Of a stretch of 64,000 bases of DNA, positions 5,649 through 55,024 are shown in pieces. The translations under genes and the position numbers were made by a program. How positions within the stretch are numbered: position 1 is the first letter of the stretch; each line of letters begins with the position of its first letter. The DNA is taken from assembly GCF_003334305.1 (NCBI RefSeq), contig NZ_QOWS01000021.1; one strand, 5' to 3'. The notes under the pieces were generated by a model. It saw nothing but the letters and a program-made list of their open reading frames with translations. It searched no databases and was not told the origin of the DNA. Origin of the DNA: Escherichia coli. Its GTDB lineage: Bacteria > Pseudomonadota > Gammaproteobacteria > Enterobacterales > Enterobacteriaceae.

Positions 5649-6539
5649 ATGCGTAAGTTCATTTTCGTATTGCTGACACTGCTTTTGGTCAGCCCTTTTT
5701 CCTTTGCGATGAAAGGTATTATCTGGCAACCACAAAACCGAGATAGTCAGGTTACCGATACCCAGTGGCAGGGGCTGATGAGTCAGTTACGTTTGCAAGG
5801 CTTCGATACCCTGGTTTTGCAATGGACCCGTTACGGCGATGCATTTACCCAGCCAGAACAGCGCACGTTATTGTTTAAGCGTGCCGCAGCTGCGCAACAG
5901 GCTGGCCTGAAGCTGATTGTCGGGCTGAACGCCGATCCGGAATTTTTTATGCACCAGAAACAGTCGTCCGCAGCGCTGGAAAGCTATCTTAATCGCCTGC
6001 TGGCTGCCGATCTCCAGCAAGCCAGATTATGGAGCGCCGCGCCTGGCATAACGCCGGATGGCTGGTACATCAGCGCGGAAATTGACGACCTGAACTGGCG
6101 CAGCGAAGCTGCCCATCAGCCTTTGCTAACATGGTTAAACAACGCGCAGCGGCTGATTAGCGATGTTTCAGCAAAACCGGTTTATATCAGTAGTTTTTTC
6201 GCCGGAAACATGTCGCCCGATGGCTATCGCCAACTGCTGGAACACGTTAAAGCAACCGGCGTTAATGTTTGGGTACAGGATGGCAGCGGCGTGGATAAAC
6301 TGACCGCTGAACAGCGTGAACGTTATCTACAAGCCAGCGCCGATTGCCAAAGTTCCGCCCCAGCAAGCGGCATTGTTTATGAACTTTTTGTCGCCGGCAA
6401 AGGCAAAACCTTTACAGCGAAACCGAAACCGGACGCAGAAATTGCCTCGCTGTTAGCGAAACGTTCCTCTTGCGGTAAAGACACTCTCTATTTCTCTCTG
6501 CGCTATTTGCCCGTCGCGCACGGCATTCTCGAGTATTAA
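5649..6539 (+). CDS. ybcH: YbcH-like secreted protein (DUF4434-like), 296 aa
   Basis: ORF with N-terminal signal peptide immediately after nfrA; matches recalled K-12 gene order nfrB-nfrA-ybcH. Confidence 0.75.
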   Translation: MRKFIFVLLTLLLVSPFSFAMKGIIWQPQNRDSQVTDTQWQGLMSQLRLQGFDTLVLQWTRYGDAFTQPEQRTLLFKRAAAAQQAGLKLIVGLNADPEFFMHQKQSSAALESYLNRLLAADLQQARLWSAAPGITPDGWYISAEIDDLNWRSEAAHQPLLTWLNNAQRLISDVSAKPVYISSFFAGNMSPDGYRQLLEHVKATGVNVWVQDGSGVDKLTAEQRERYLQASADCQSSAPASGIVYELFVAGKGKTFTAKPKPDAEIASLLAKRSSCGKDTLYFSLRYLPVAHGILEY

Positions 6540-6721
6540 ATCTCCTCCAGGTAAGTCGGGTACGACCTGGCTTACCTCTTTCGCTCTCGTCAGAATTCCA
6601 TCAAGATTAATTGCTAAAAAGCGTGCTAAAGAAAGAAGATCGTTATCGGCGAACGGGCCGATCACTCATGCAGGAAGCATAGATCCTTTGAGCGGAGTTT
6701 CTGATATCTGAGGAGTGCGAA

Positions 6722-7483
6722 ATGCAATTGAGCAGCAGTGAACCTTGCGTGGTGATCCTGACCGAAAAAGAGGTAGAGGTAAGCGTCAATAACCATGCTA
6801 CGTTTACCCTTCCGAAAAACTACCTGGCCGCCTTCGCGTGCAACAATAACGTCATTGAACTCTCAACGTTAAATCACGTATTAATCACCCACATCAACCG
6901 TAACATCATCAACGATTATCTGTTGTTTTTAAATAAGAACTTAACCTGTGTAAAGCCCTGGTCGCGGCTGGCAACCCCGGTTATTGCTTGTCATAGCCGT
7001 ACACCGGAAGTGTTCCGGCTAGCCGCCAACCACAGCAAGCAGCAACCCAGCAAACCCTGCGAAGCGGAGTTGACGCGCGTATTGCTTTTTACCGTATTGT
7101 CTAACTTTCTTGAGCAATCGCGGTTTATTGCCCTACTGATGTATATCTTACGCAGCAGCGTCCGCGACAGCGTCTGCCGCATTATTCAAAGCGATATTCA
7201 GCATTACTGGAATCTGCGAATTGTCGCCAGTTCGCTATGTTTAAGCCCCAGCCTGCTCAAAAAGAAATTAAAAAACGAAAATACCAGCTATAGCCAGATT
7301 GTCACAGAGTGTCGTATGCGTTACGCCGTACAGATGTTATTGATGGATAACAAAAATATCACTCAGGTGGCGCAATTATGTGGCTATAGCAGCACGTCAT
7401 ACTTTATCTCTGTTTTTAAGGCGTTTTACGGCCTGACACCGTTGAATTATCTCGCCAAACAGCGACAAAAAGTGATGTGGTGA
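6722..7483 (+). CDS. envY: AraC-family transcriptional regulator EnvY (porin thermoregulation)
   Basis: 253-aa ORF with a C-terminal AraC-type HTH (…YSSTSYFISVFKAFYGLTPLNY); position next to the argU-derived att remnant. Confidence 0.8.
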   Translation: MQLSSSEPCVVILTEKEVEVSVNNHATFTLPKNYLAAFACNNNVIELSTLNHVLITHINRNIINDYLLFLNKNLTCVKPWSRLATPVIACHSRTPEVFRLAANHSKQQPSKPCEAELTRVLLFTVLSNFLEQSRFIALLMYILRSSVRDSVCRIIQSDIQHYWNLRIVASSLCLSPSLLKKKLKNENTSYSQIVTECRMRYAVQMLLMDNKNITQVAQLCGYSSTSYFISVFKAFYGLTPLNYLAKQRQKVMW

Positions 7484-7528
7484 AGGGCAAAGCGGAAACG
7501 GATAAGACGGGCATAAATGAAGAAGAAA

Positions 7529-7573
7529 TGGCGCGCCCTGCAGGATTCGAACCTGCGGCCCACGACTTAGAAG
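7529..7573. repeat. attL: 45-bp partial copy of the tRNA-Arg 3' end (pauD-like remnant)
   Basis: tggcgcgccctgcaggattcgaacctgcggcccacgacttagaag is identical to 54073-54117; coordinates approximate. Confidence 0.85.
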
Positions 7574-7995
7574 TTCCTAGAACGACATTTTAAGTCAACA
7601 AATTACCGCGCCATCTCTGCGCTCACACGTCCCACTACCTCAAAACATGTAAAGCCTTGCAAGCCATTGTGAGGCCTTATGTGTCTCAGTTTTGTCCCTC
7701 TTTTTTGTACTAAAAAACATAGCAATTGAGGATAAACCTCATGCTATTTTCGCTTATATGCCTTTAAAGGCATGGCGCTTAAATAGATAAAAACACCACA
7801 AAAGCATAAAAAACCACACAGTAAAACCGCAACATAAAACAATAACAGATAATTAAACCAAAAACAGATAGCGCATTGTGATAATCATTCAATACTAAAC
7901 AAAATATAAACAGTGGAGCAATATGTGATTGACTCATTAAGTTAGATATAAAAAATACATATTCAATCATTAAAACGATTGAATGGAGAACTTTT

Positions 7996-29513: not shown

Positions 29514-30539
29514 TTACGCCAGTTGTACGGACACGAACGCATCAGGGTCAGCCAGCAGCATCAGCGGTGCTGACTGAATCATGGTGAACTCACGCGCCGG
29601 ATCGCCGGTGGTCACCCAGTTTTTCGGGTAGCGGGCAGAGGCGTTAATACCTTCGCGCTGTGCGTCCGCATCCTGAATGCAGCCATAGGTGCGCAGACCG
29701 CGTGCCTGAGTGTTCCCCAGCACCATCGTGTTGTCCGGCAGGAAGTTCTTTTTGACGTCGTTTTCCACGTACTGTCCGGAATACACGACGATCGCCGTAT
29801 CGCCATACATCCCCTTATAGGACACCGCTTCGCCCAGGTCTTTTACCGCTGTCTCCAGCTCGGAATTAGAGCCGCGACGGGTATCCAGCTTCTCCTTGAC
29901 GGCTTTGAAGGAACGGAACAGCGCCCAGCCTTTCGGATCAAACACGATGATATTCACCACACCGCTGGCGTTCAGCGCGTAGGCTTCGATATCGTCGGTC
30001 GGGTCATACGTGGACTTGTCACGCTTGCTCCACTCCGTACCGCCGGACTGCGTGATGTTGTTCGCCACACTGCGGCCCATATCCACTTCAACCGGATCGA
30101 AGGCTTCACCGGTCATGGTATATTTGCCCTTAAGCACGGCAGAAACGGCCTGCATCTCTTCGACCTGAGCAATGGCCAGCTCTTCGTCTCGCATGTTCTG
30201 CAGGATGATGCGACGGCGGCGGTAAGCCGGGTCCGCCAGATTCTGTGGATCTTCATCCGGCAGGCGACGCAGGGTCATCTGCGGATTCACCTCATGCTTC
30301 GGCTTGACATATCCCGGTGTAAATTCAGAGGTGGAGCCGCCACGGGAGCGGATAACCTCACCGGAAACAATCGGCGAAACGTACAGCGCCATGTTTACCA
30401 GTCCCGGAATTTGTGAGAGATAGACTTTCTCCGTGGTGAAGGGATAGCTCTCACGGAAAAAGAGACGCAGAAACAGCGGATCAAACTTAAATTTCTTCTC
30501 ATTTGCCGCCAGCAGCTGGGCGGTTGTGTACATCGACAT
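29514..30539 (-). CDS. E: Major capsid protein E, 341 aa
   Basis: Internal Met gives the lambda E N-terminus MSMYTTAQLLAANE. Confidence 0.95.
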   Translation of the reverse strand: MSMYTTAQLLAANEKKFKFDPLFLRLFFRESYPFTTEKVYLSQIPGLVNMALYVSPIVSGEVIRSRGGSTSEFTPGYVKPKHEVNPQMTLRRLPDEDPQNLADPAYRRRRIILQNMRDEELAIAQVEEMQAVSAVLKGKYTMTGEAFDPVEVDMGRSVANNITQSGGTEWSKRDKSTYDPTDDIEAYALNASGVVNIIVFDPKGWALFRSFKAVKEKLDTRRGSNSELETAVKDLGEAVSYKGMYGDTAIVVYSGQYVENDVKKNFLPDNTMVLGNTQARGLRTYGCIQDADAQREGINASARYPKNWVTTGDPAREFTMIQSAPLMLLADPDAFVSVQLA

Positions 30540-30594
30540 AAAAAAATCCCGTAAAAAAAGCCGCACAGGCGGCCTTTAGTGATGAAGGGTAAGG

Positions 30595-30927
30595 TTAAAC
30601 GATGCTGATTGCCGTTCCGGCAAACGCGGTCCGTTTTTTCGTCTCGTCGCTGGCAGCCTCCGGCCAGAGCACATCCTCATAACGGAACGTGCCGGACTTG
30701 TAGAACGTCAGCGTGGTGCTGGTCTGGTCAGCAGCAACCGCCAGAATGCCAACGGCAGCACCGTCGGTGGTGCCATCCCACACAACCAGCTTACGGGTGG
30801 AGGTGTCCAGCATCAGCGGGGTCATTGTAGGCGCTTTCGCACTCAATCCGCCGGGCGCGGTTGCCGTATGTGCCGGGTCACTGTTGCCCAGCGGCTGGTA
30901 ATGGGTAAAGGTTTCTTTGCTCGTCAT
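30595..30927 (-). CDS. D: Head decoration protein D, 110 aa
   Basis: Matches lambda D ([12 protein letters not shown]…). Confidence 0.95.
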
Positions 30928-43786: not shown

Positions 43787-44500
43787 TTATTCTTTATTAT
43801 CTTCTTTACCACTTCGCACCATCCCGTTCGACTTGTTGCGGTTGTACTTCGCCTGAAGCAGCTGGATTGGCGTCGGGCCATGCTCGGCAGCCGGTGCTGC
43901 AATCGCCCGGCGCACAGGCGGTACTGGTTTGCCCTCGGTGACGCGCCTCTCCCACATGTCCAGCAGATCGCCGGCTTCACGCGCCAGCTCACCATGCGTT
44001 AACTGGCGCTCTGTGCTGCGGTGGCGCAGTTCGACGCAGATGTGGTACATGACAGGCTGTGACCACGGGAAATGCTCGCTGGAAGTGAATTCGAAGGAAC
44101 GATTACGCCAATCCCAGTATTCGGTTATGACTTGGTCAACAGTGATACCTAACGCCCCGCCACTCTGCTTACACCACGCTACGAACTGGCCGGGCGACGG
44201 CAGGAATGGTCGCTCCTGTCGGCGGGCCACGCGCATTCCGGCGTTAACCTGTTCCATTGTGGTGATCCCGTTTTCCCGGAAAGCCAGAACCCACTGGCGG
44301 CGAATTTCGTTCAGTTCGTTCTGGTCACGGTTAGCCAGGCTCGCAGGGAAAGTTGCCAGCAACTGGCTGAATACACCGTTGATGATCTGCGCTACCTGCT
44401 GTACCTGCGGCTTTTCGTCGTACTGTTCCGGCATGTTGTTGGCGATCCGGCGCATCTGCTCACGGTCAAAGTTAACCATCTGTGCGGCGATGTTTTTCAT
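43787..44500 (-). CDS. P: Replication protein P (helicase loader), 237 aa
   Basis: N-terminal two-thirds match lambda P as recalled; the C-terminus diverges. Confidence 0.85.
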   Translation of the reverse strand: MKNIAAQMVNFDREQMRRIANNMPEQYDEKPQVQQVAQIINGVFSQLLATFPASLANRDQNELNEIRRQWVLAFRENGITTMEQVNAGMRVARRQERPFLPSPGQFVAWCKQSGGALGITVDQVITEYWDWRNRSFEFTSSEHFPWSQPVMYHICVELRHRSTERQLTHGELAREAGDLLDMWERRVTEGKPVPPVRRAIAAPAAEHGPTPIQLLQAKYNRNKSNGMVRSGKEDNKE

Positions 44501-45426
44501 AAATCCACCCCGTAAATCCAGTCAGTGTTCGTCAGGTCGAGTTTTGGTTTGCCGGCTGTCACGCCAGCCTGTTGCTTGTTTCGGTTGATTTCGAGCTGGG
44601 TCCACTTGTCGCGGAGTTTGGCCGGACTCAGCACGTTACCGGACCAGAAGTTGTCCTGGCAGGCCCAGCGAAACAGTACACACATGTCGCGGTGGTTACG
44701 TCCATCACGTTCACGCATCAGACGGATATCGTTAGCCCACCCTGCAAAATTCGGTTTTCTGGCTGATGGTGCGATAGTCTTCACCATGTCAAACATCCAC
44801 TCTGCGGCGGTCAGGTCTTCTGCTGTCCCCCACTTGCTGCCGTTCTGAATCGCAGCATCCGCTTTCACCACAGGAAGGTCGTTTTCTGGCAGGTCAGAGG
44901 ATTCGCCAGAATTCTCTGACGAATAAGGTTTTATATTGTCTTTTGTTAGTTTGTCTTTTGTGTTTACCGGATTCGGGTAAGTGCCTTTACCTGATTTGGG
45001 TAAACTTTTCTTACCTGATTCAGGTAAATTTACCTCTTTCAGGTAAACTTTATTTTTCTTACCTGATTCGGGTAATGTTGACCATTCACTGACCACATTA
45101 TTAATGCCTATATTCCGCCCGCTCTGAATAAAAATCCCACGCTTTACCAGAACACTTTTTGCAGCAGAACACTTGTGCGGCAATATCCCGGTCAACTCGG
45201 AAAGTTGCTCGTTGCTCACCCAATCCAGTTTTTTATTAAAGCCATATGTTTTGCGCATGACAGCCAGGAAGACCAGAAGCTGGTGCTGTGTTAATCCGGC
45301 CAGCATTACAGCTTCCAGCAACTCATTTGCAATGCGCGTATAACCATCATCGAGATCTGCCACGCGCGGCTCCTTTTGTGCCGCATCCGGCACAGGAAAA
45401 TTGAATATCTCAGCAGTGTTTGCCAT
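44497..45426 (-). CDS. O: Replication initiator O (contains ori iterons)
   Basis: ORF 44497-45516; ATG at 45426 has a GGGAGG SD and an N-terminus (MANTAEIFNF) like lambda O (MTNTAKILNF). Confidence 0.8.
   Translation of the reverse strand: MANTAEIFNFPVPDAAQKEPRVADLDDGYTRIANELLEAVMLAGLTQHQLLVFLAVMRKTYGFNKKLDWVSNEQLSELTGILPHKCSAAKSVLVKRGIFIQSGRNIGINNVVSEWSTLPESGKKNKVYLKEVNLPESGKKSLPKSGKGTYPNPVNTKDKLTKDNIKPYSSENSGESSDLPENDLPVVKADAAIQNGSKWGTAEDLTAAEWMFDMVKTIAPSARKPNFAGWANDIRLMRERDGRNHRDMCVLFRWACQDNFWSGNVLSPAKLRDKWTQLEINRNKQQAGVTAGKPKLDLTNTDWIYGVDL
44963..45075. repeat. ori: five ~17-bp iterons (ttacctgattcgggtaa-like) with a flanking AT-rich stretch, inside the O gene
   Basis: Direct repeats ttaccggattcgggtaa, ttacctgatttgggtaa, ttacctgattcaggtaa, ttacctctttcaggtaa, ttacctgattcgggtaa; coordinates approximate. 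Confidence 0.75.
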
Positions 45427-45512
45427 AATTCCTCCCGCAATGAGTGTGTTACGATTTGCACCTGAAAGTCGGTTCTGTTCCCGCAGACCGACTTTCGCCA
45501 TTTTTAAACCTG

Positions 45513-46058
45513 TCATATTGCCCCCAACATGGTGGTAACCATCGCCATCAATGGACCAGCCAGATCCGGGTCCACACGAAACATCGACACAATACCTTCA
45601 CTCATCTCCTTCAGTTTCTGGTGGCGTGGTGCGTTGAGAATGACAGCCTGTTTTGCCTCACTGAGTTCCTTTTCCATTTCAGCCAACCGAGTCATGAAGC
45701 TATCCTGCTCAACCAGGTAACCGCGATATTCCAGCGGTAGTACCGCCAGAATTGCCGGGGTCAGTTCACGCACGTTATTTCGGTATTTTTCAGAATCGAA
45801 TTTGTTATCGAGGAAGCGGAACAGCTTCTGGCGTGCACGGCTGACATCATCAGGGAAATCGATGGTGCCGCCGCCCTGTGCTCGATACTCATTCACAATG
45901 AGTGCGGCAACAACATCCTGATTATCTGCAGCCGACCAGGCGCGGACGGCATCACGGATTTTTTCGTGGCCTGGCACCTGTTTTGTTTGAGAACGATTTA
46001 TCACCGCAGTCGGGCTAAATCCGCTAGTCTGTTGGTATGTAAGTGGTTGCATAGTCAT
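45513..46058 (-). CDS. YdaT-family protein in the cII position, 181 aa
   Basis: Similarity to Rac YdaT as recalled (EYRAQGGG…LTPAILAVLP vs EYLRQGGG…LIPAILAILP). Confidence 0.6.
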   Translation of the reverse strand: MTMQPLTYQQTSGFSPTAVINRSQTKQVPGHEKIRDAVRAWSAADNQDVVAALIVNEYRAQGGGTIDFPDDVSRARQKLFRFLDNKFDSEKYRNNVRELTPAILAVLPLEYRGYLVEQDSFMTRLAEMEKELSEAKQAVILNAPRHQKLKEMSEGIVSMFRVDPDLAGPLMAMVTTMLGAI

Positions 46059-46082
46059 TGCCTTATCAGTTAACGCCGCAGT

Positions 46083-46316
46083 TTAGGCGGCAGAATTACT
46101 CGCGTTAAACAATGGTGCGAGGTCGGGACGAATATCTGCTGGTTTAATCTTTCCACCAGTGGCTGAGACAATTTTCATTACATAGCGGGCATCAATTCCG
46201 CCACCGTGTAGCCAACGCCAAACTGTGGGTTGGGCTACACCGCATAGATCTGCCAGTCGTTTTTGACTACCTGTAATACTGATTGCGAGTTGAATGGTTT
46301 GATTTGTCATTATCAA
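46083..46316 (-). CDS. Cro/YdaS-like HTH regulator, 77 aa
   Basis: HTH (LADLCGVAQPTVWRW); divergent from the cI-like gene across an operator region. Confidence 0.7.
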   Translation of the reverse strand: MIMTNQTIQLAISITGSQKRLADLCGVAQPTVWRWLHGGGIDARYVMKIVSATGGKIKPADIRPDLAPLFNASNSAA

Positions 46317-46324
46317 TTCCTATT

Positions 46325-46380
46325 GGTATTGCAATGAATGAATAATAGCAATGAGTATTAACCCAAGCAATAGCAAAACG
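46325..46380. promoter_or_regulatory. OR-like operator/promoter region between the cro-like and cI-like genes
   Basis: Repeated atagcaat(g/a)agtatt-type motifs shared with the OL region; TATAAA about 9 nt upstream of the cI ATG suggests a leaderless PRM transcript; coordinates approximate. Confidence 0.5.
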
Positions 46381-46420
46381 TGTTTTGACCATCAATACGC
46401 AAGCGTATAAATTAAAACTT

Positions 46421-47113
46421 ATGAAAAAAGAAACTCTTGCTGATCGCTTAAATCTAGCGATGGAACAATCTGGAATGTCTCAAGGCGCTCTTGCAAAGGC
46501 GTCTGGCGTAGCTCAACCCACAATCTGGAGACTGACAAGCGGCAACGCGCGCGGCTCAACAAAAATTGTTGAAATAGCTAATGCATTGGGTGTTCGAACA
46601 GAATGGCTCTCTTCAGGCATAGGCCCGATGAGAAATGACGGTCAACAATCAGGGAAGCCTGCTGTCAGCCATTCCAAATACTTCAAAATTGACGTTCTTG
46701 ATATAGAAGTCAGTGCCGGGCCGGGTGTAATCAACCGTGAGTTTGTAGAAGTTCTACGCTCGGTTGAATACTCGTTTGACGATGCTCGTCACATGTTCGA
46801 TGGCAGGAAGGCGGAAAATATCCGCATCATTAACGTGCGTGGTGACAGCATGTCAGGAACGATCGAACCAGGTGATCTGCTGTTCGTTGATATCACGGTT
46901 AAATCTTTCGACGGTGATGGTATCTATGCGTTTCTGTATGACGACACCGCCCATGTAAAACGCCTGCAAATGATGAAGGATAAGCTGCTGGTTATCTCTG
47001 ATAACAAGAGCTACTCACCGTGGGACCCGATCGAGAAAGACGAGATGAACCGCGTGTTCATCTTCGGGAAAGTCATCGGGAGCATGCCGCAGACATATAG
47101 AAAGCATGGGTAG
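46421..47113 (+). CDS. cI: CI-type repressor (HTH + S24 LexA-like peptidase domain), 230 aa
   Basis: N-terminal HTH (MSQGALAKASGVAQPTIWRL) and C-terminal S24 region (VRGDSMSGTIEPGDLLFVD…KRL). Confidence 0.85.
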   Translation: MKKETLADRLNLAMEQSGMSQGALAKASGVAQPTIWRLTSGNARGSTKIVEIANALGVRTEWLSSGIGPMRNDGQQSGKPAVSHSKYFKIDVLDIEVSAGPGVINREFVEVLRSVEYSFDDARHMFDGRKAENIRIINVRGDSMSGTIEPGDLLFVDITVKSFDGDGIYAFLYDDTAHVKRLQMMKDKLLVISDNKSYSPWDPIEKDEMNRVFIFGKVIGSMPQTYRKHG

Positions 47114-47175
47114 AAATCAGAACAAAATTATGCACTTCGCTTTTCAGCTTACTGTAGTAAGGCAATAAATTAGGC

Positions 47176-47212
47176 TTGACGTTAGCTATCAGGTGCACAA
47201 CAATAATTGTTG
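47176..47212 (+). promoter_or_regulatory. Candidate promoter with a 15-bp perfect palindrome (caacaataattgttg) upstream of the HTH-peptidase gene
   Basis: TTGACG -35-like hexamer followed by the palindrome, 30-65 nt upstream of the 47243 start; coordinates approximate. Confidence 0.4.
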
Positions 47213-47242
47213 AATAATAGGTTTTTTTAACTAGGTGATAAC

Positions 47243-48382
47243 ATGGCAGCGGTTGAATTTCAATTGTCTAGGAAGATGATTGATTGGATAGCAAATTCTC
47301 AAGGAGTTTCTATCGAAACTCTTGCTGACCAAGTCATGCCCAAAAAGATTAATAAATTTCTTAACGGAGTGGTAAGTAAATCCGCAGCAGAAAAACTGGC
47401 AAAAATTGGAGGAATCCCTTTCGGTTTTTTATTTCTTGAAACGCCACCAACTCCAGCCAAACCCAAGATCCCTGACTTAAGGCAAGCTATAAATAGCCGT
47501 GAGTTAGGAAAAGATTTTTTTGATGTTTACTATGATATAGAATATAAACTTGAGTGGTACAAAGACTATTTAAGAGAAAATGGTAATGATGATCCACTCG
47601 ATTTTATTGGTAAATTTAAATTTAATAGAAAATTAAATTATAAGGTTGTTGCTACAGACATAGCAAACACAATACATTTTGATATACAAAAAGAGATAAA
47701 AAATGTCACTTTTGAGAGCTATTTTTCTAAAGTGGCAAAACTAATAGAAGACACTGGCGTATTAGTTTTCAAGAATGGTGTTGTGGGTAATAATAATAAA
47801 AGAAAACTTGACACGCGAGAGTTTCGTGGTTTCTGTATATCTGATAGCGTTGCTCCGATCATTTTTGTAAATAGCTCGGACGCGTTATCTGCGCAGGTAT
47901 TTACATTATTTCATGAGGTGGCTCATCTTTGGCTTGGAGTCGATGGAGTCTCTGGGTGGGACACAGAAAAAAACATAGAATCTTTTTGTAATAAAGTTGC
48001 TGCTGAAATCTTAATGCCTGATAATCTCTTCAAATCTTTCTGGCTTAATGCATCCAGCGATAATAATTATTATCGAGTAAAAGAGGTTTCTAAGTTATTT
48101 AAGGTTAGTGATTTCGCTTGTGCAATCAAAGCGTTACAATTAGATTTGATAGAAAGAAACACTTTGGAGATAATTAAAGATCAAGCTTACAATAAGCCCA
48201 AAAAAGAATCCAATGGTGGTTCTTTCTTTAACACATTACCTGTTCGTAACAGTCCAAAACTTACGAATATAATAATTTCCAAAGCAATGTCTCAACAATT
48301 ACCATTAAGGGAAGCAGGCGTACTGCTAAATGTAAAAGCAGATACAGTTGTTGAATTTTATAAAAAACGAGAATCTCTATGA
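47243..48382 (+). CDS. HTH-fused ImmA/IrrE-family (M78/DUF955-like) zinc metallopeptidase, 379 aa
   Basis: N-terminal XRE-like HTH; HEXXH motif (FHEVAHLW); AGGTGA SD; AT-rich; directly downstream of cI. Confidence 0.7.
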   Translation: MAAVEFQLSRKMIDWIANSQGVSIETLADQVMPKKINKFLNGVVSKSAAEKLAKIGGIPFGFLFLETPPTPAKPKIPDLRQAINSRELGKDFFDVYYDIEYKLEWYKDYLRENGNDDPLDFIGKFKFNRKLNYKVVATDIANTIHFDIQKEIKNVTFESYFSKVAKLIEDTGVLVFKNGVVGNNNKRKLDTREFRGFCISDSVAPIIFVNSSDALSAQVFTLFHEVAHLWLGVDGVSGWDTEKNIESFCNKVAAEILMPDNLFKSFWLNASSDNNYYRVKEVSKLFKVSDFACAIKALQLDLIERNTLEIIKDQAYNKPKKESNGGSFFNTLPVRNSPKLTNIIISKAMSQQLPLREAGVLLNVKADTVVEFYKKRESL

Positions 48383-48891
48383 TTCATAATGGAAAATTCT
48401 TAATTGATAGTAATGTCTTCATAGAGGCAAAAAACTTTGCATATAACTTCAATTATTGCAAAATATTTTGGGATTTTCTTCTCGCTTTACACATTAATGG
48501 TCTGATTTATAGCATTAATGCTGTAAAAAAAGAACTATGTGCAAAAGATGATCCATTGTGTAAATGGATTAAAGAAGAGTTACCATCATCATTCTTCGAA
48601 GATGAGCATAGTTCAATAGAAAATTATGCAAAGTTAATAAATTGGTCAACTAAATTAGATGTTACCGAAAAGGCAAAGTTTGATTTTGCAAGCCATGAAA
48701 AAGCAGATGCTTTTTTAATAGCCCATGCGATGACACATGGATATACTATTATTACCCATGAGAAACCATCCGGTGGCAAACCTAAAAAAAGAATAATGAT
48801 CCCGGATGCTGCTGCTTCTCACGGCGTTAAGACATTAACACTATATGAATTTCTTCCAAGATACGCTAGTCATAATTTTTCTTTGAAATAA
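48379..48891 (+). CDS. PIN-like (possibly DUF4411-family) putative nuclease/effector, 170 aa
   Basis: ATGA overlap with the upstream gene; N-terminal strand-Asp motif (FLIDSNVFIEA) typical of PIN folds; fold assignment is tentative. Confidence 0.5.
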   Translation: MIHNGKFLIDSNVFIEAKNFAYNFNYCKIFWDFLLALHINGLIYSINAVKKELCAKDDPLCKWIKEELPSSFFEDEHSSIENYAKLINWSTKLDVTEKAKFDFASHEKADAFLIAHAMTHGYTIITHEKPSGGKPKKRIMIPDAAASHGVKTLTLYEFLPRYASHNFSLK

Positions 48892-48896
48892 AACGT

Positions 48897-48923
48897 CCCG
48901 GCCACCGTGCCGGGTTTTCTTTT
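48897..48923 (+). terminator. Rho-independent terminator after the two-gene cassette
   Basis: cccggccaccgtgccggg followed by TTTTCTTTT. Confidence 0.75.
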
Positions 48924-49044
48924 GCCTCCCCTCATCACACACACCGTTCAAAAAACCACCACAACCCCGCTTCAGTTATCGCTATGCGATGCAAGTCACA
49001 AAATTAATTCTTTTTGCTATCAAATATTTAATATCAAAACACAT

Positions 49045-49092
49045 CTAGCAATAGCAATAAGTATTGATATCATCAATAGCAATAGCTATTAT
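49045..49092. promoter_or_regulatory. OL-like operator region (pL)
   Basis: tagcaatagcaataagtattg and atcaatagcaatagctattatc repeat the motif seen in the OR region; coordinates approximate. Confidence 0.45.
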
Positions 49093-49198
49093 CACCATGT
49101 CGCAACAACACAACGATACGGCAATCACCTGATTCACCGTTGCGATGACCGCTTAGATCCGCAGCTTGAATTTCAGCAGGCTCCGGGGAGTGCGAGGG

Positions 49199-49576
49199 GT
49201 GAAGCGGACGCGTGAACGTCGGTGTGACCAGCTGAAATCAACTCAACACTTCATACCTCAGTCGCTTCAACGAGGCGGCTTAGTTATGACAACCGGCGGC
49301 CATCCACCGCCTGAATACGCGCAGAAGTCTTTATATGTTCAGCAGCCCAGCTTACGGGCAGGAGTTTTTATGGTTCATCAACATTACGGAACGCAGACCG
49401 TTAATCGCGGTGCGGTCATGCCAGGAATGCTGGTCAAACACAAAGATGGTACCTGGACTGCATCAGCTAATTTACGCGGACGGCTTTATCTGCATCGCGG
49501 CATCGAGCGCACTTATACCCGTGATTTGCTCGTAGAAGTTTTTCTCGACGGACGCGGTAACGGCCTGAATCACTAA
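49199..49576 (+). CDS. Possible N-like antitermination protein with an arginine-rich motif (GTG start)
   Basis: First gene after the OL region; KRTRERR at the N-terminus resembles N-protein ARMs; no other similarity recognised. Confidence 0.3.
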   Translation: MKRTRERRCDQLKSTQHFIPQSLQRGGLVMTTGGHPPPEYAQKSLYVQQPSLRAGVFMVHQHYGTQTVNRGAVMPGMLVKHKDGTWTASANLRGRLYLHRGIERTYTRDLLVEVFLDGRGNGLNH

Positions 49577-49652
49577 CCCCCCTTTCCTGTTTTCCTAATC
49601 AGCCTGGCATTTCGCAGGCGATATTTTCACAGCCATTTTCAGGAGTTCAGCC

Positions 49653-49949
49653 ATGAACGCTTATTACATTCAGGATCGTCTTGAGGCTCAGAGCTGGGCA
49701 CGTCACTACCAGCAGATCGCCCGTGAAGAGAAAGAGGCAGAACTGGCAGACGACATGGAAAAAGGTCTTCCACAGCACCTGTTTGAATCACTCTGTATCG
49801 ATCATTTGCAACGCTGCGGGGCCAGCAAAAAAGCCATTACCCGTGCGTTTGATGACGATGTTGAGTTTCAGGAGCGCATGGCAGAACACATCCGGTACAT
49901 GGTTGAAACCATTGCTCACCACCAGTTTGATATTGATTCAGAGGTATAA
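49653..49949 (+). CDS. gam: Gam (RecBCD inhibitor, short form), 98 aa
   Basis: Matches lambda GamS as recalled ([21 protein letters not shown]…). Confidence 0.9.
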
Positions 49950-49954
49950 AACGG

Positions 49955-50740
49955 ATGAGTACAGCACTCGCAACGCTGGCAGGAAAGCTGGCTGAACGTG
50001 TCGGCATGGATTCTGTCGACCCACAGGAACTGATCACCACTCTTCGCCAGACGGCATTTAAAGGTGATGCCAGCGATGCGCAGTTCATCGCATTGTTGAT
50101 CGTCGCCAACCAGTACGGCCTTAATCCGTGGACGAAAGAAATTTACGCCTTCCCTGATAAGCAGAACGGCATCGTTCCGGTGGTGGGCGTTGATGGCTGG
50201 TCCCGCATCATCAATGAAAACCAGCAGTTTGATGGCATGGACTTTGAGCAGGACAATGAATCCTGTACATGCCGGATTTACCGCAAGGACCGTAATCATC
50301 CGATCTGCGTTACCGAATGGATGGATGAATGCCGCCGCGAACCATTCAAAACTCGCGAAGGCAGAGAAATCACGGGGCCGTGGCAGTCGCATCCCAAACG
50401 GATGTTACGGCATAAAGCCATGATTCAGTGTGCCCGTCTGGCCTTCGGATTTGCTGGTATCTATGACAATGATGAAGCCGAGCGCATTGTCGAAAATACT
50501 GCATACACTGCAGAACGTCAGCCAGAACGCGACATCACTCCGGTTAACGATGAAACCATGCAGGAGATTAACACTCTGCTGATCGCCCTGGATAAAACAT
50601 GGGATGACGACTTATTGCCGCTCTGTTCCCAGATATTTCGCCGCGACATTCGCGCATCGTCAGAACTGACACAGGCCGAAGCAGTGAAAGCTCTTGGATT
50701 CCTGAAACAGAAAGCCACTGAGCAGAAGGTGGCAGCATGA
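49955..50740 (+). CDS. bet: Bet single-strand annealing recombinase, 261 aa
   Basis: Matches lambda Beta. Confidence 0.95.
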
Positions 50741-51417
50741 TACCGGACATTATCCTGCAGCGTACCGGGATCGACGTGAGAGCTGTCGAACAGGGGGATG
50801 ATGCATGGCACAAATTACGGCTCGGCGTCATCACCGCTTCAGAAGTTCACAACGTGATAGCAAAACCCCGCTCCGGAAAGAAATGGCCTGACATGAAAAT
50901 GTCCTACTTCCACACCCTGCTTGCCGAGGTTTGCACCGGTGTGGCTCCGGAAGTTAACGCTAAAGCACTGGCCTGGGGAAAACAGTACGAGAACGACGCC
51001 AGAGCCCTGTTTGAGTTTACTTCCGGCGTGAATGTTACTGAATCCCCGATCATCTATCGCGACGAAAGTATGCGTACCGCCTGCTCTCCGGATGGTTTAT
51101 GCAGTGACGGCAACGGCCTTGAACTGAAATGCCCGTTTACCTCCCGGGATTTCATGAAATTCCGGCTCGGTGGTTTCGAGGCCATAAAGTCGGCTTACAT
51201 GGCCCAAGTGCAGTACAGCATGTGGGTGACGCGAAAAGATGCCTGGTACTTTGCCAACTATGACCCGCGCATGAAGCGTGAAGGCCTGCATTATGTCGTG
51301 ATTGAGCAGGATGAAAAGTACATGGCGAGTTTTGACGAGATGGTGCCGGAGTTCATCGAAAAAATGGACGAGGCACTGGCTGAAATTGGTTTTGTATTTG
51401 GGGAGCAATGGCGATGA
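50737..51417 (+). CDS. exo: Lambda-type exonuclease Exo, 226 aa
   Basis: Matches lambda Exo. Confidence 0.95.
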
Positions 51418-51596
51418 AGCATCCTCACGATAATATCCGGGTAGGTGCGATCACTTTCGTCTACTCCGTTACAAAGCGAGGCTGGGTATTTCCCGGCCTT
51501 TCTGTTATCCGAAATCCACTGAAAGCCCAGCGGCTGGCTGAGGAGATAAATAATAAACGAGGGGCTGTATGCACAAAGCATCTCCTGTTGAGTTAA
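51408..51596 (+). CDS. Small hypothetical protein (lambda orf60a position)
   Basis: ORF following exo, colinear with lambda. Confidence 0.5.
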
Positions 51597-51760
51597 GAAC
51601 GAGCATTGAGATGGCACATAGCCTTGCTCAAATTGGAGTCAGGTTTGTGCCAATACCAGCAGAAACAGACGAAGAATTTCATACGTTAGCCACATCCCTT
51701 TCACAAAAGCTGGAAATGATGGTGGCGAAAGCAGAAGCAGATGAGAGAGACCCGGTATGA
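51569..51760 (+). CDS. Small hypothetical protein (lambda orf63 position)
   Basis: ORF; colinear with lambda. Confidence 0.5.
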   Translation: MHKASPVELRTSIEMAHSLAQIGVRFVPIPAETDEEFHTLATSLSQKLEMMVAKAEADERDPV

Positions 51761-52058
51761 CAGCCACGGAATGCATTTTTCTGGCAGCGGGCTTCATATT
51801 CTGTGTGCTTATGCTTGCCGACATGGGACTTGTTCAATGACACCTCAGCAGGAAAACGCCCTTCGCAGCATTGCCCGTCAGGCTAATTCTGAAATCAAAA
51901 AAGCCAGACAGCAGTTTCCGGATAAAAACGTCGATGACATTTGCCGTAGCGTACTGAAGAAGCACCGTGAAACGGTAACGCTGATGGGATTCACACCGAC
52001 TCATTTAAGCCTGGCGATCGGCATGTTAAACGGCGTCTTTAAGGAACGGTTAACATGA
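51741..52058 (+). CDS. Small hypothetical protein (lambda orf61 position); the true start may be the internal MTPQQ about 51837
   Basis: ORF; colinear with lambda. Confidence 0.45.
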   Translation: MRETRYDSHGMHFSGSGLHILCAYACRHGTCSMTPQQENALRSIARQANSEIKKARQQFPDKNVDDICRSVLKKHRETVTLMGFTPTHLSLAIGMLNGVFKERLT

Positions 52059-52074
52059 AAAGCAAAATCATCAG

Positions 52075-52098
52075 GGAGCTACAGGCTCCTTTTTTATT
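52075..52098 (+). terminator. Rho-independent terminator
   Basis: ggagctacaggctcc followed by TTTTTTATT; coordinates approximate. Confidence 0.6.
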
Positions 52099-52150
52099 GT
52101 TCGCATTCATCCTCAAGCGTATTAACCAACAATTCAGGGATTAATGGAAG

Positions 52151-52369
52151 ATGGCAGACATCATTGATTCAGCATCAGAAATCGAAGAATTACAGCGCAA
52201 TACAGCAATAAAAATGCGTCGTCTGAACTACCAGACTGTATCCGCAACTCATTGTTGTGAGTGTGGCGATCCGATAGATGAGCGAAGACGCCTGGCTGTT
52301 CAGGGTTGTCGGACTTGTGCAAGTTGCCAGGAGGAGATCGAACTTAAGAACAAACAATGGGGACTGTGA
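52151..52369 (+). CDS. TraR/DksA-family C4 zinc-finger protein, 72 aa
   Basis: CxxC…CxxC motif (CCECGDPIDERRRLAVQGCRTCASC). Confidence 0.7.
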   Translation: MADIIDSASEIEELQRNTAIKMRRLNYQTVSATHCCECGDPIDERRRLAVQGCRTCASCQEEIELKNKQWGL

Positions 52370-52416
52370 TGGCCTCAAAGCAGCAAATTTCAACATCGTC
52401 CAACTGAGGTGTAAAA

Positions 52417-52695
52417 ATGTTCAGAATCATTTTTCCTAACACCTGGTACGTCGACCACCACGGCACTCCCTGCAAAATCCTGCGTTCTACCCACAACAAA
52501 GTTCACTACATCCGAAAAGGCAGAACATGTATCGCCAGCATGTTCCGCTTTAATCATGACTTTGAACCTGTGAATAAAGCTGATGCAGATCAGATAGCAG
52601 AAGAGATCGAAACGGCAGAACACATTAAGAAGTTACGTGACATGCGTTCAAAAAGCAGAGGTAACCATGGAATCATACAGCCTCACACTCGATGA
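52417..52695 (+). CDS. Hypothetical protein, 92 aa
   Basis: ORF only. Confidence 0.35.
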   Translation: MFRIIFPNTWYVDHHGTPCKILRSTHNKVHYIRKGRTCIASMFRFNHDFEPVNKADADQIAEEIETAEHIKKLRDMRSKSRGNHGIIQPHTR

Positions 52696-53038
52696 GGCCT
52701 GTCAGTTTCTTAAGATATCCAGACCAACCGCCACCAACTGGATACGAACAGGCCGCCTACAGGCAACACGTAAAGATCCAACCAAGCCAAAATCTCCTTA
52801 CCTCACAACACGGCAAGCCTGCATTGCGGCGCTTCAGTCTCCGCTGCATACTGTCCAGGTGAGCGCGGGTGATGGCATAACAGAGGAAAGAAAATGTCAC
52901 TCTTCCGCAGAAATGAAATATGGTATGCCTCGTATTCGCTCCCGGGCGGGAAACGAATTAAGGAATCTCTTGGCACAAAGGACAAGCGGCAAGCTCAGGA
53001 GTTGCACGACAAGCGAAAAGCAGAACTCTGGCGAGTAG
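52667..53038 (+). CDS. xis: Putative excisionase (Xis-like HTH protein); overlaps the int start
   Basis: ORF 52637-53038; internal Met [31 protein letters not shown] has an HTH; lies immediately upstream of int. Confidence 0.45.
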
Positions 53039-54057
53039 AAAAGCTAGGGGATTTACCTGATGTCACTTTTGAAGAGGCCTGCCTAAGATGGCTTGAGGAA
53101 AAAGCTGATAAAAAATCTCTCGATTCAGATAAAAGCCGGATTGAGTTCTGGCTTGAACATTTTGAGGGTATAAGGCTTAAAGATATCTCGGAGGCAAAGA
53201 TTTACTCTGCTGTAAGCAGAATGCATAACAGAAAGACGAAAGAAATATGGAAACAGAAAGTTCAGGCCGCCATCAGGAAAGGTAAAGAACTGCCTGTTTA
53301 TGAACCAAAGCCAGTATCAACTCAGACAAAGGCAAAGCATCTTGCCATGATAAAGGCCATTCTCCGTGCTGCAGAACGCGACTGGAAGTGGCTGGAAAAA
53401 GCGCCTGTCATCAAGATACCAGCGGTCAGAAACAAGCGAGTCAGATGGCTGGAAAAGGAGGAAGCAAAACGCCTTATTGATGAGTGCCCCGAACCACTGA
53501 AATCTGTCGTCAAGTTTGCGCTGGCAACTGGTCTGAGAAAGTCGAACATCATAAATCTGGAATGGCAACAAATCGACATGCAGCGACGAGTTGCCTGGGT
53601 GAATCCAGAAGAGAGCAAATCAAACCGCGCCATTGGTGTGGCGCTGAACGATACCGCCTGTAAAGTGTTGCGTGATCAAATAGGCAAGCATCACAAATGG
53701 GTGTTTGTACATACCAAGGCGGCTAAGCGAGCAGATGGAACATCAACGCCTGCGGTCAGGAAGATGCGCATCGACAGCAAGACATCATGGCTATCAGCTT
53801 GTCGTCGTGCAGGAATTGAAGATTTCCGTTTCCATGACCTCAGACACACCTGGGCAAGCTGGCTGATTCAGTCAGGCGTCCCATTATCAGTGCTTCAGGA
53901 AATGGGCGGATGGGAGTCCATAGAAATGGTTCGTAGGTATGCTCACCTTGCGCCTAATCATTTGACAGAGCATGCGAGGAAAATAGACGACATTTTTGGT
54001 GATAATGTCCCAAATATGTCCCACTCTGGAATTATGGAGGATATAAAGAAGGCGTAA
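52894..54057 (+). CDS. intD: Tyrosine integrase (IntD-like), 387 aa
   Basis: Matches DLP12 integrase as recalled; C-terminal catalytic region (…[15 protein letters not shown]…RYAHL); adjacent to tRNA-Arg. Confidence 0.9.
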
Positions 54058-54072
54058 CTGATTGAATTGTAA

Positions 54073-54117
54073 TGGCGCGCCCTGCAGGATTCGAACCTGC
54101 GGCCCACGACTTAGAAG
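54073..54117. repeat. attR core (3' 45 nt of argU), identical to 7529-7573
   Basis: Direct repeat seen in sequence. Confidence 0.85.
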
Positions 54118-54149
54118 GTCGTTGCTCTATCCAACTGAGCTAAGGGCGC
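54073..54149 (-). tRNA. argU: tRNA-Arg (anticodon UCU), argU; prophage attachment site
   Basis: Reverse complement reads GCGCCCTTAGCTCAGTTGGATAGAGCAACGACCTTCTAAGTCGTGGGCCGCAGGTTCGAATCCTGCAGGGCGCGCCA (77 nt, cloverleaf-compatible, CCA end); coordinates approximate. Confidence 0.9.
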
Positions 54150-54391
54150 GTTGATACCGCAATGCGGTGTAATCGCGTGAATTATACGGTCAACCCTTGC
54201 TGAGTCAATGGCTTTTGATCTGGTTGCTGAACAAGTGAACGACCGCGTCTGATTTTCTGATTTATTTCGCTATAGCGGCAAACAAACACACACCGCTGCG
54301 CGTCTGAATCAAGAAAACCCGTATTTTCATGTATCAAAGTACAATTTACCGCCCTAACGGAAAATTGTCCGCTCCTATGAGACTGGTAACT

Positions 54392-55024
54392 ATGAAACCA
54401 ACGTCGGTGATCATTATGGATACTCATCCTATCATCAGAATGTCTATTGAAGTTCTGTTGCAAAAAAACAGTGAATTGCAGATTGTCCTGAAAACGGATG
54501 ATTACCGCATAACCATCGATTATCTCCGAACCCGTCCTGTTGATTTAATCATTATGGATATAGACTTGCCCGGAACAGACGGTTTTACCTTCCTGAAAAG
54601 GATCAAACAAATCCAGAGCACAGTGAAAGTGTTATTTTTATCATCGAAATCAGAATGCTTTTATGCTGGCAGAGCGATACAAGCTGGTGCTAACGGTTTT
54701 GTCAGTAAATGCAATGATCAGAATGATATTTTTCATGCCGTTCAGATGATCCTCTCCGGATACACGTTTTTTCCCAGCGAAACGCTTAACTATATAAAAA
54801 GCAATAAATGTAGTACGAATAGTTCAACGGTCACTGTACTATCTAATCGTGAAGTGACCATATTACGTTATCTGGTTAGCGGATTATCTAATAAAGAAAT
54901 TGCCGATAAGTTATTACTTAGCAATAAAACAGTTAGTGCGCATAAATCTAATATTTATGGCAAGCTAGGTTTGCATTCAATTGTAGAACTTATCGACTAC
55001 GCCAAATTATACGAATTAATATAA
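54392..55024 (+). CDS. fimZ: LuxR-family response regulator FimZ, 210 aa
   Basis: ORF 54329-55024; internal Met gives MKPTSVIIMDTHPI…; REC domain plus LuxR HTH. Confidence 0.85.
   Translation: MKPTSVIIMDTHPIIRMSIEVLLQKNSELQIVLKTDDYRITIDYLRTRPVDLIIMDIDLPGTDGFTFLKRIKQIQSTVKVLFLSSKSECFYAGRAIQAGANGFVSKCNDQNDIFHAVQMILSGYTFFPSETLNYIKSNKCSTNSSTVTVLSNREVTILRYLVSGLSNKEIADKLLLSNKTVSAHKSNIYGKLGLHSIVELIDYAKLYELI

Follow-up and report, generated by a model that had tools for sequence, protein, structure and literature searches.

A TraR/DksA-like zinc-finger protein of an Escherichia coli argU prophage corresponds to phage lambda Orf73

The argU prophage and its early-left genes

The window analysed here, a 64,000-nucleotide stretch of an Escherichia coli contig (NZ_QOWS01000021.1), contains a lambdoid prophage that extends from ~10,600 to a tRNA-Arg(tct) gene (54073..54149, - strand; found by ARAGORN and Rfam), the argU / DLP12 integration site. 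The tRNA gene marks the attachment site and adjoins int, an integrase gene of the intD type (52894..54057, +; ORF and RefSeq) that ends the early-left gene string. The gene of interest, at 52151..52369 (+; ORF, profiles and RefSeq), is an ATG-to-TGA ORF in the ORF listing and encodes a 72-aa protein, MADIIDSASEIEELQRNTAIKMRRLNYQTVSATHCCECGDPIDERRRLAVQGCRTCASCQEEIELKNKQWGL. Its stop codon lies 525 nt ahead of the integrase start (52894), which agrees with the first-pass annotation of a prophage-encoded gene in the int-proximal region. A search of the whole window returned no second TraR-like gene there, giving a copy number of one.

The other end of the early-left region begins with a gene for a CI-like repressor (46421..47113, +). 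It contains a C-terminal S24/UmuD-like part and matches PHROG 4 (E 5e-69), PHROG 6201 ('CI-like repressor') and a UmuD-like profile; RefSeq names it 'XRE family transcriptional regulator'. An ImmA/IrrE-like gene of the metallopeptidase type (47243..48382, +) and a DUF4411 gene (48379..48891, +) follow, and then a bidirectional hairpin (48897..48914). This immunity region (46421..49100) is unlike that of lambda, with the ImmA/IrrE-like and DUF4411 genes in the position of rexAB.

A candidate pL-like promoter (TTGATA-17-TATTAT) lies at 49064..49092 (+), on the same strand as the TraR-like gene and 3.06 kb upstream of it; it is a weak candidate, as the consensus scan returned no more hits than in shuffled sequence. 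Between this site and 52073 we found kil, gam, bet, exo, orf60a, orf63 and a long form of orf61, in that order and all on the + strand. A hairpin followed by T6 (52073..52097, +; 8-bp stem and 3-nt loop, from a pattern scan) separates the orf61-like ORF from the TraR-like gene and ends 54 nt ahead of its ATG. Downstream are a DUF4222 gene (52417..52695, +) and a 123-aa excisionase ORF (52667..53038, +), and every gene from kil through int is on the + strand. For annotation, the TraR-like gene can serve as a marker of the exo-xis block of the lambdoid prophage at argU.

Two of these neighbours differ from their current annotation. The excisionase ORF, which runs 145 nt into the start of int, is matched by PHROG 2907 ('excisionase') along its entire length (E 5.9e-46). 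RefSeq has only a 66-nt helix-turn-helix pseudogene fragment there, and judging from the ORF this excisionase may be intact and under-annotated. The orf61 homolog (51741..52058, +) encodes 105 aa and matches PHROG 303 over 93 of its 101 positions. At 51897..51902 the window has a run of A6 where the lambda reference has A7, and in lambda the annotated orf61 is cut to 61 aa, with a separate 60-aa ORF. From this, lambda orf61 appears to be a longer conserved gene that has suffered a frameshift, or else a slippery-run variant.

Apart from the Rz/Rz1 lysis genes, which RefSeq gives as incomplete or frameshifted, the prophage is complete in its head, tail, replication, recombination, int and xis genes. 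Its genes between ~10,600 and 46,000 (NZ_CP028767.1, 1323800-1359200) include those for an OmpC-like porin and a Lom/Ail-family protein, iss (a serum-survival lipoprotein) and pinR. Outside the prophage, a host gene next to nfrA that the record names 'nrfB' is annotated with an internal stop.

Relationship to TraR, DksA and lambda Orf73

Family profiles placed the protein with the TraR/DksA zinc fingers. Residues 33-64 matched positions 4-35 of the 36-position Pfam model PF01258 (zf-dskA_traR) at E 3.5e-9, and PHROG 54 ('DksA-like zinc-finger protein') was matched over the full length, residues 1-70, at E 3.6e-26. The NCBIfam model TIGR02419 (C4_traR_proteo, the TraR family of phages and conjugal plasmids) gave E 2e-14 and 53.9 bits, below its curated cut-off of 59.7. 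For comparison, lambda Orf73 scores 54.7 and F TraR 80.5 with the same model. Because the experimentally validated lambda Orf73 also falls under the cut-off, we read the shortfall as a property of the whole Orf73 clade and not as counter-evidence to membership. The first-pass annotation had staked its assignment on a profile match, and all three of these profiles matched.

The nearest named families were considered and set aside. With the equivalog models for F-type conjugal TraR (NF010268) and YbiI (NF008243) the protein reached 25.8 of the 108 bits and 42.8 of the 96 bits set as cut-offs, scores on which we rejected F TraR or YbiI proper and placed the protein in a paralogous clade. DksA proper was rejected as well, although the protein would act in a DksA-like manner, as it has 72 aa and not ~150, lacks a coiled coil, and has no DksA model among its NCBIfam hits.

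The sequence carries the motifs of TraR-type proteins. Six cysteines are present, at positions 35, 36, 38, 53, 56 and 59, of which C35, C38, C56 and C59 form a CxxC-x17-CxxC pattern in register with the zinc-binding cysteines of TraR and YbiI. The protein had been described as a 72-aa four-cysteine finger; its size and C4 pattern stand, but the cysteine count was short by C36 and C53. Residues 3-8 (DIIDSA) make up an N-terminal DxxDxA motif (D3, D6 and A8), on which TraR and lambda Orf73 depend for activity (PMC9239242), R46/R47 are the counterparts of R48/R49 in TraR, and the ExxRL variant of ExxRK is found. We aligned the protein with 11 homologs, namely 10 phage homologs from the tblastn hits and F TraR. 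D3, D6, C35, C38, I42, R46, R47, C56 and C59 were invariant among them, and A8, S31, E44, G52, Q60 and E64 nearly so.

Structural comparison points in the same direction. By sequence, the protein matched the PDB chains of TraR (5w1s_M and 6n57_M) and YbiI (2KGO), the TraR alignment covering residues 1-69. An AlphaFold2 model built from the alignment of 11 homologs has moderate confidence (mean pLDDT 78) and contains a long N-terminal helix (3-27), a short helix (44-49) and a C-terminal helix (57-70), with no coiled coil. Its top Foldseek match in the PDB was TraR on RNA polymerase (RNAP; 6n57_M, 71 columns, TM 0.59, probability 1.00), followed by YbiI, TraR 5w1s and DksA. Taking the domain, the C4 and DxxDxA motifs, the arginine pair, and the size and predicted fold together, we assign the protein to the TraR family.

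Within this family the protein resembles F-plasmid TraR (5W1S, 6N57) in size (72 against 73 aa), in its N-terminal helix, C4 zinc globule and C-terminal helix, and in the DxxDxA, RR and CxxC-x17-CxxC elements, and TraR is the best structural match of the model. It differs from TraR in that identity is only ~30%, in its two extra cysteines, and in being phage-borne where TraR is encoded in the tra operon. With E. coli YbiI (2KGO) and DksA it shares the zf-dskA_traR zinc-finger domain. However, YbiI is chromosomal and has 88 aa, and DksA has ~150 aa, depends on ppGpp and bears its DxxDxA on a coiled-coil tip, whereas the window protein has a single N-terminal helix.

The closest characterised relative is phage lambda Orf73, with 87% identity over 71 residues, no gaps and nine substitutions. 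Lambda Orf73 is a 73-aa ORF (complement 30392..30613), one residue longer than the window protein; it is unannotated in NC_001416, which has no CDS annotated between ea22 and orf61. Both proteins have the same six cysteines, DxxDxA motif and ExxRL/RR segment, and both genes directly follow orf61 in the exo-xis block. Gene order from exo through orf60a, orf63 and orf61 to orf73 is common to the window and lambda, the upstream genes match PHROGs 1998, 292 and 303, and the DNA from exo through the TraR-like gene is ~97% identical to lambdoid phages, including lambda. In addition, the hairpin and leader upstream of the gene are identical in lambda. On protein identity and shared gene order, the gene is an ortholog of lambda Orf73. 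The homology to PF01258, PHROG 54 and lambda Orf73 (87%) also identifies this 72-codon ORF as a genuine protein-coding gene rather than a chance reading frame. The TraR/DksA-like identity proposed from the letters alone is thus upheld by the profiles, by a fold nearest to RNAP-bound TraR, and by 87% identity to lambda Orf73 with the same gene order.

Divergence from lambda is concentrated at one end of the gene. Codons 1-60 differ from lambda by 7 synonymous and 4 non-synonymous changes, which is consistent with purifying selection, and codons 61-71 by 2 synonymous and 5 non-synonymous changes. Five of the nine substitutions therefore fall in the last 11 residues (E62, I63, K66, N67 and W70, the last being R70W relative to lambda), which form the C-terminal helix. 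The homology to lambda breaks within the last ~11 codons, and this mosaic junction (52330..52700) explains the divergent helix. Past the junction, a 12-codon mini-ORF and the DUF4222 gene take the place of lambda ea22 and ea8.5; the prophage also differs from lambda in its xis, its intD-type integrase at tRNA-Arg and its immunity region, and in having no recognisable N.

Expression and predicted activity

Copies of the ATAGCAAT repeat flank the pL-like site (49045-49090) and recur beside the CI-like repressor gene (46340-46380), and we propose these repeats as candidate operators. By this layout the repressor presumably keeps the early-left operon, and hence the TraR-like gene, silent in the lysogen. 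We infer from the lambda parallel that loss of the repressor allows early-left transcription of the gene, with the candidate site at 49064..49092 as the presumed source of the transcript after induction. Nearer to the gene, no sigma-70-like promoter was found within 51300..53000.

How far such a transcript would run is a separate matter. Between the repressor block and kil, PHROG matching and the RefSeq annotation gave no recognisable N-like antiterminator: a 102-aa ORF (48907..49215) has no PHROG match, and the only match of a 136-aa ORF (49166..49576) is to Kil, through its C-terminal part. Rfam searched over 44000..55000 at E<=1 gave no nut- or put-like RNA, only the tRNA-Arg and chance hits, and the predicted fold of the leader RNA (49100..49300) is no more stable than that of shuffled sequence (z -1.3). 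The same early-left layout without N is found in the viable phage 4A7 and its relatives. The hairpin at 52073..52097 stands out in a prophage that lacks a recognisable N antiterminator, and it may control what share of early-left transcription gets through to the TraR-like gene. It is base-for-base the same in lambda (about 30669-30691) and in phage ev243, and its fold is unremarkable (-11.1 kcal/mol, z-score -1.5). We dropped an identification with a named lambda terminator such as tL3, for which the literature search gave only vector papers without coordinates.

The activity of lambda Orf73 has been described in detail by Gopalkrishnan et al. (mBio 2022, PMC9239242). The purified protein inhibits rrnB P1 with an IC50 of ~50 nM and without ppGpp, like TraR, and also inhibits rpsT P2. 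It binds RNAP at the DksA/TraR site in competition with DksA, and the substitutions D3N or D6N inactivate it. Expressed from pL in vivo, it lowered pre-16S rRNA to 29% and rpsT mRNA to 45% and slowed host growth, and phage yield from lysogens with intact orf73 was 3-4-fold higher than from those carrying D3A/D6A or an in-frame deletion. Unlike TraR, it activated the tested promoters weakly if at all. The conserved features named in that study are DxxDxA, the equivalents of R48/R49 (which in TraR contact the rim helices and beta' Si3), a C-terminal helix that contacts beta Si1, and two extra cysteines specific to Orf73. DxxDxA, the arginine pair and the two additional cysteines are all kept in the window protein; it also has the C-terminal helix, where 5 of the 9 substitutions lie. 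Using TraR in RNAP as the template, Donaldson et al. (2021, PMC8614690) built models of lambda and Stx-phage Orf73 and noted the same hallmarks, including ExxRL for ExxRK.

By homology, the N-terminal helix would insert into the RNAP secondary channel with DxxDxA at its tip, bringing D3 and D6 near the active site. The C4 zinc globule would rest on the rim of the channel, touching the rim helices and beta' Si3 through R46/R47, and the C-terminal helix would contact beta Si1. Binding of this kind is expected to alter open-complex kinetics without ppGpp, so that promoters with short-lived open complexes, those of rRNA and ribosomal proteins, would be inhibited. As the gene lies in the early-left operon, its product would presumably be absent from the lysogen and made early after induction, when diverting host transcription from ribosome synthesis could raise phage yield. 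By analogy with lambda Orf73, whose activity and expression timing the window allele would be expected to share, we therefore favour a TraR-type, ppGpp-independent factor of the RNAP secondary channel that inhibits rRNA and ribosomal-protein promoters and favours phage production after induction (probability roughly 0.93). The first-pass suggestion that such proteins can reprogram host transcription matches the wording of the PMC9239242 title for the Orf73 clade, although it did not name lambda orf73.

Two qualifications concern this particular allele. Its potency or promoter range could differ from those of lambda Orf73, because the five C-terminal substitutions fall in the helix that contacts beta Si1 in TraR. 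There is a slim chance that the divergent helix, together with the hairpin in a prophage without N, gives a promoter range or expression regime unlike that of lambda Orf73, for example weak expression in lysogens that adjusts host growth. The role in burst size may moreover be moot in this strain because Rz/Rz1 are annotated as disrupted.

We weighed three other readings of the locus. The protein might be intact but a silent passenger, without effect on host or phage here, either because the prophage has partly decayed or because the hairpin ends transcription. The RefSeq status of Rz and Rz1, the hairpin and T6 54 nt upstream, the failure to recognise an N-like antiterminator from the repressor to kil, and the lack of a sigma-70-like promoter within 51300..53000 all lean that way. 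However, the ORF and all its functional residues are intact, the remaining head, tail, replication, recombination, int and xis genes are complete, viable 4A7 and its relatives share the layout without N, and lambda has the identical hairpin and yet expresses Orf73 from pL (PMC9239242). We consider this reading unlikely, and it bears on the relevance of the protein in this strain rather than on its identity. By contrast, the notion of a generic small zinc ribbon, DNA-binding or other, that is TraR/DksA-like only through four cysteines retains practically no weight, even though short C4 motifs recur across many unrelated folds and the protein has weak Pfam matches (C1_1, DpnI and zf-HYPF, all at E > 0.1). 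The similarity is full-length (residues 1-70 for PHROG 54 and 1-69 for TraR) and includes DxxDxA and the RR pair, the fold search puts TraR, YbiI and DksA first, and lambda Orf73, an RNAP binder validated by experiment, shares 87% identity with the protein. On this full-length homology we rejected a generic ribbon, or a chance zinc-finger ORF, as effectively refuted.

A further reading takes its main role to be the blocking of host replication initiation or a bias in the lysis-lysogeny decision, and not the reprogramming of rRNA transcription. It draws on older genetics of the lambda block, in the summaries given by PMC9239242 and PMC8614690: the block orf73-ea22-ea8.5-orf55 was tied to an inhibition of replication initiation (the 'bin' phenotype), and deletion of orf73 lowered lysogenisation and host survival. 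An older study, as those two papers discuss it, also found an effect of Orf73 on phage yield of the opposite sign. In PMC9239242, however, lambda Orf73 from a single-copy prophage barely lowered dnaA mRNA, and in vitro the dnaA promoters were inhibited only at ~10-40-fold higher concentration than rrnB P1; in its authors' proposal, the effects on replication are an indirect consequence of RNAP binding. The window prophage also has no ea22 or ea8.5, the partner genes of the lambda block, but the DUF4222 gene in their place, and the same RNAP-binding mechanism would still lie upstream of any such effects. A primary role in replication or lysogeny thus seems very improbable, and inhibition of rRNA and ribosomal-protein promoters by a secondary-channel factor is the reading we prefer.

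Distribution among phages and E. coli genomes

The chromosome of E. coli strain A7 (NZ_CP028767.1) matches the window at 100% identity, and RefSeq labels the identical gene there WP_000763385.1, 'TraR/DksA family transcriptional regulator'. The gene is thus already known and annotated, and the first-pass observation and its interpretation are correct without being new. With the mechanism of the ortholog published in 2022, the locus has little discovery value. The questions raised by expression in lysogens and by the conflicting reports on phage yield concern the whole Orf73 clade, not this locus.

A tblastn search found homologs of the protein in 608 phage records, among them an identical protein (100%) in Shigella phage SfI; in Stx phages (933W and others) and lambda hybrids the protein is 87-96% identical. 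SfI, ev243, 2G7b, 4A7 and the Stx phages carry it at the same exo-to-int position under the name 'DksA-like zinc-finger protein' or 'TraR/YbiI family protein', and we regard these as the same gene in other lambdoid genomes, with no substantial difference. By megablast, 3312 of 5426 complete E. coli genomes (61%) contain close DNA copies, up to six per genome and uniformly annotated, and the ORF stays intact in thousands of E. coli genomes. A ppGpp-independent factor that reprograms RNAP would, on these counts, be widespread in the species.

The phage record closest to this region is ev243 (NC_049955.1). At 5900..7601 it has ompT and an alpha/beta hydrolase gene beside its integrase, which are host genes flanking the DLP12 site. 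This suggests that ev243 is a lambda hybrid that took the int end of an argU prophage together with host DNA.
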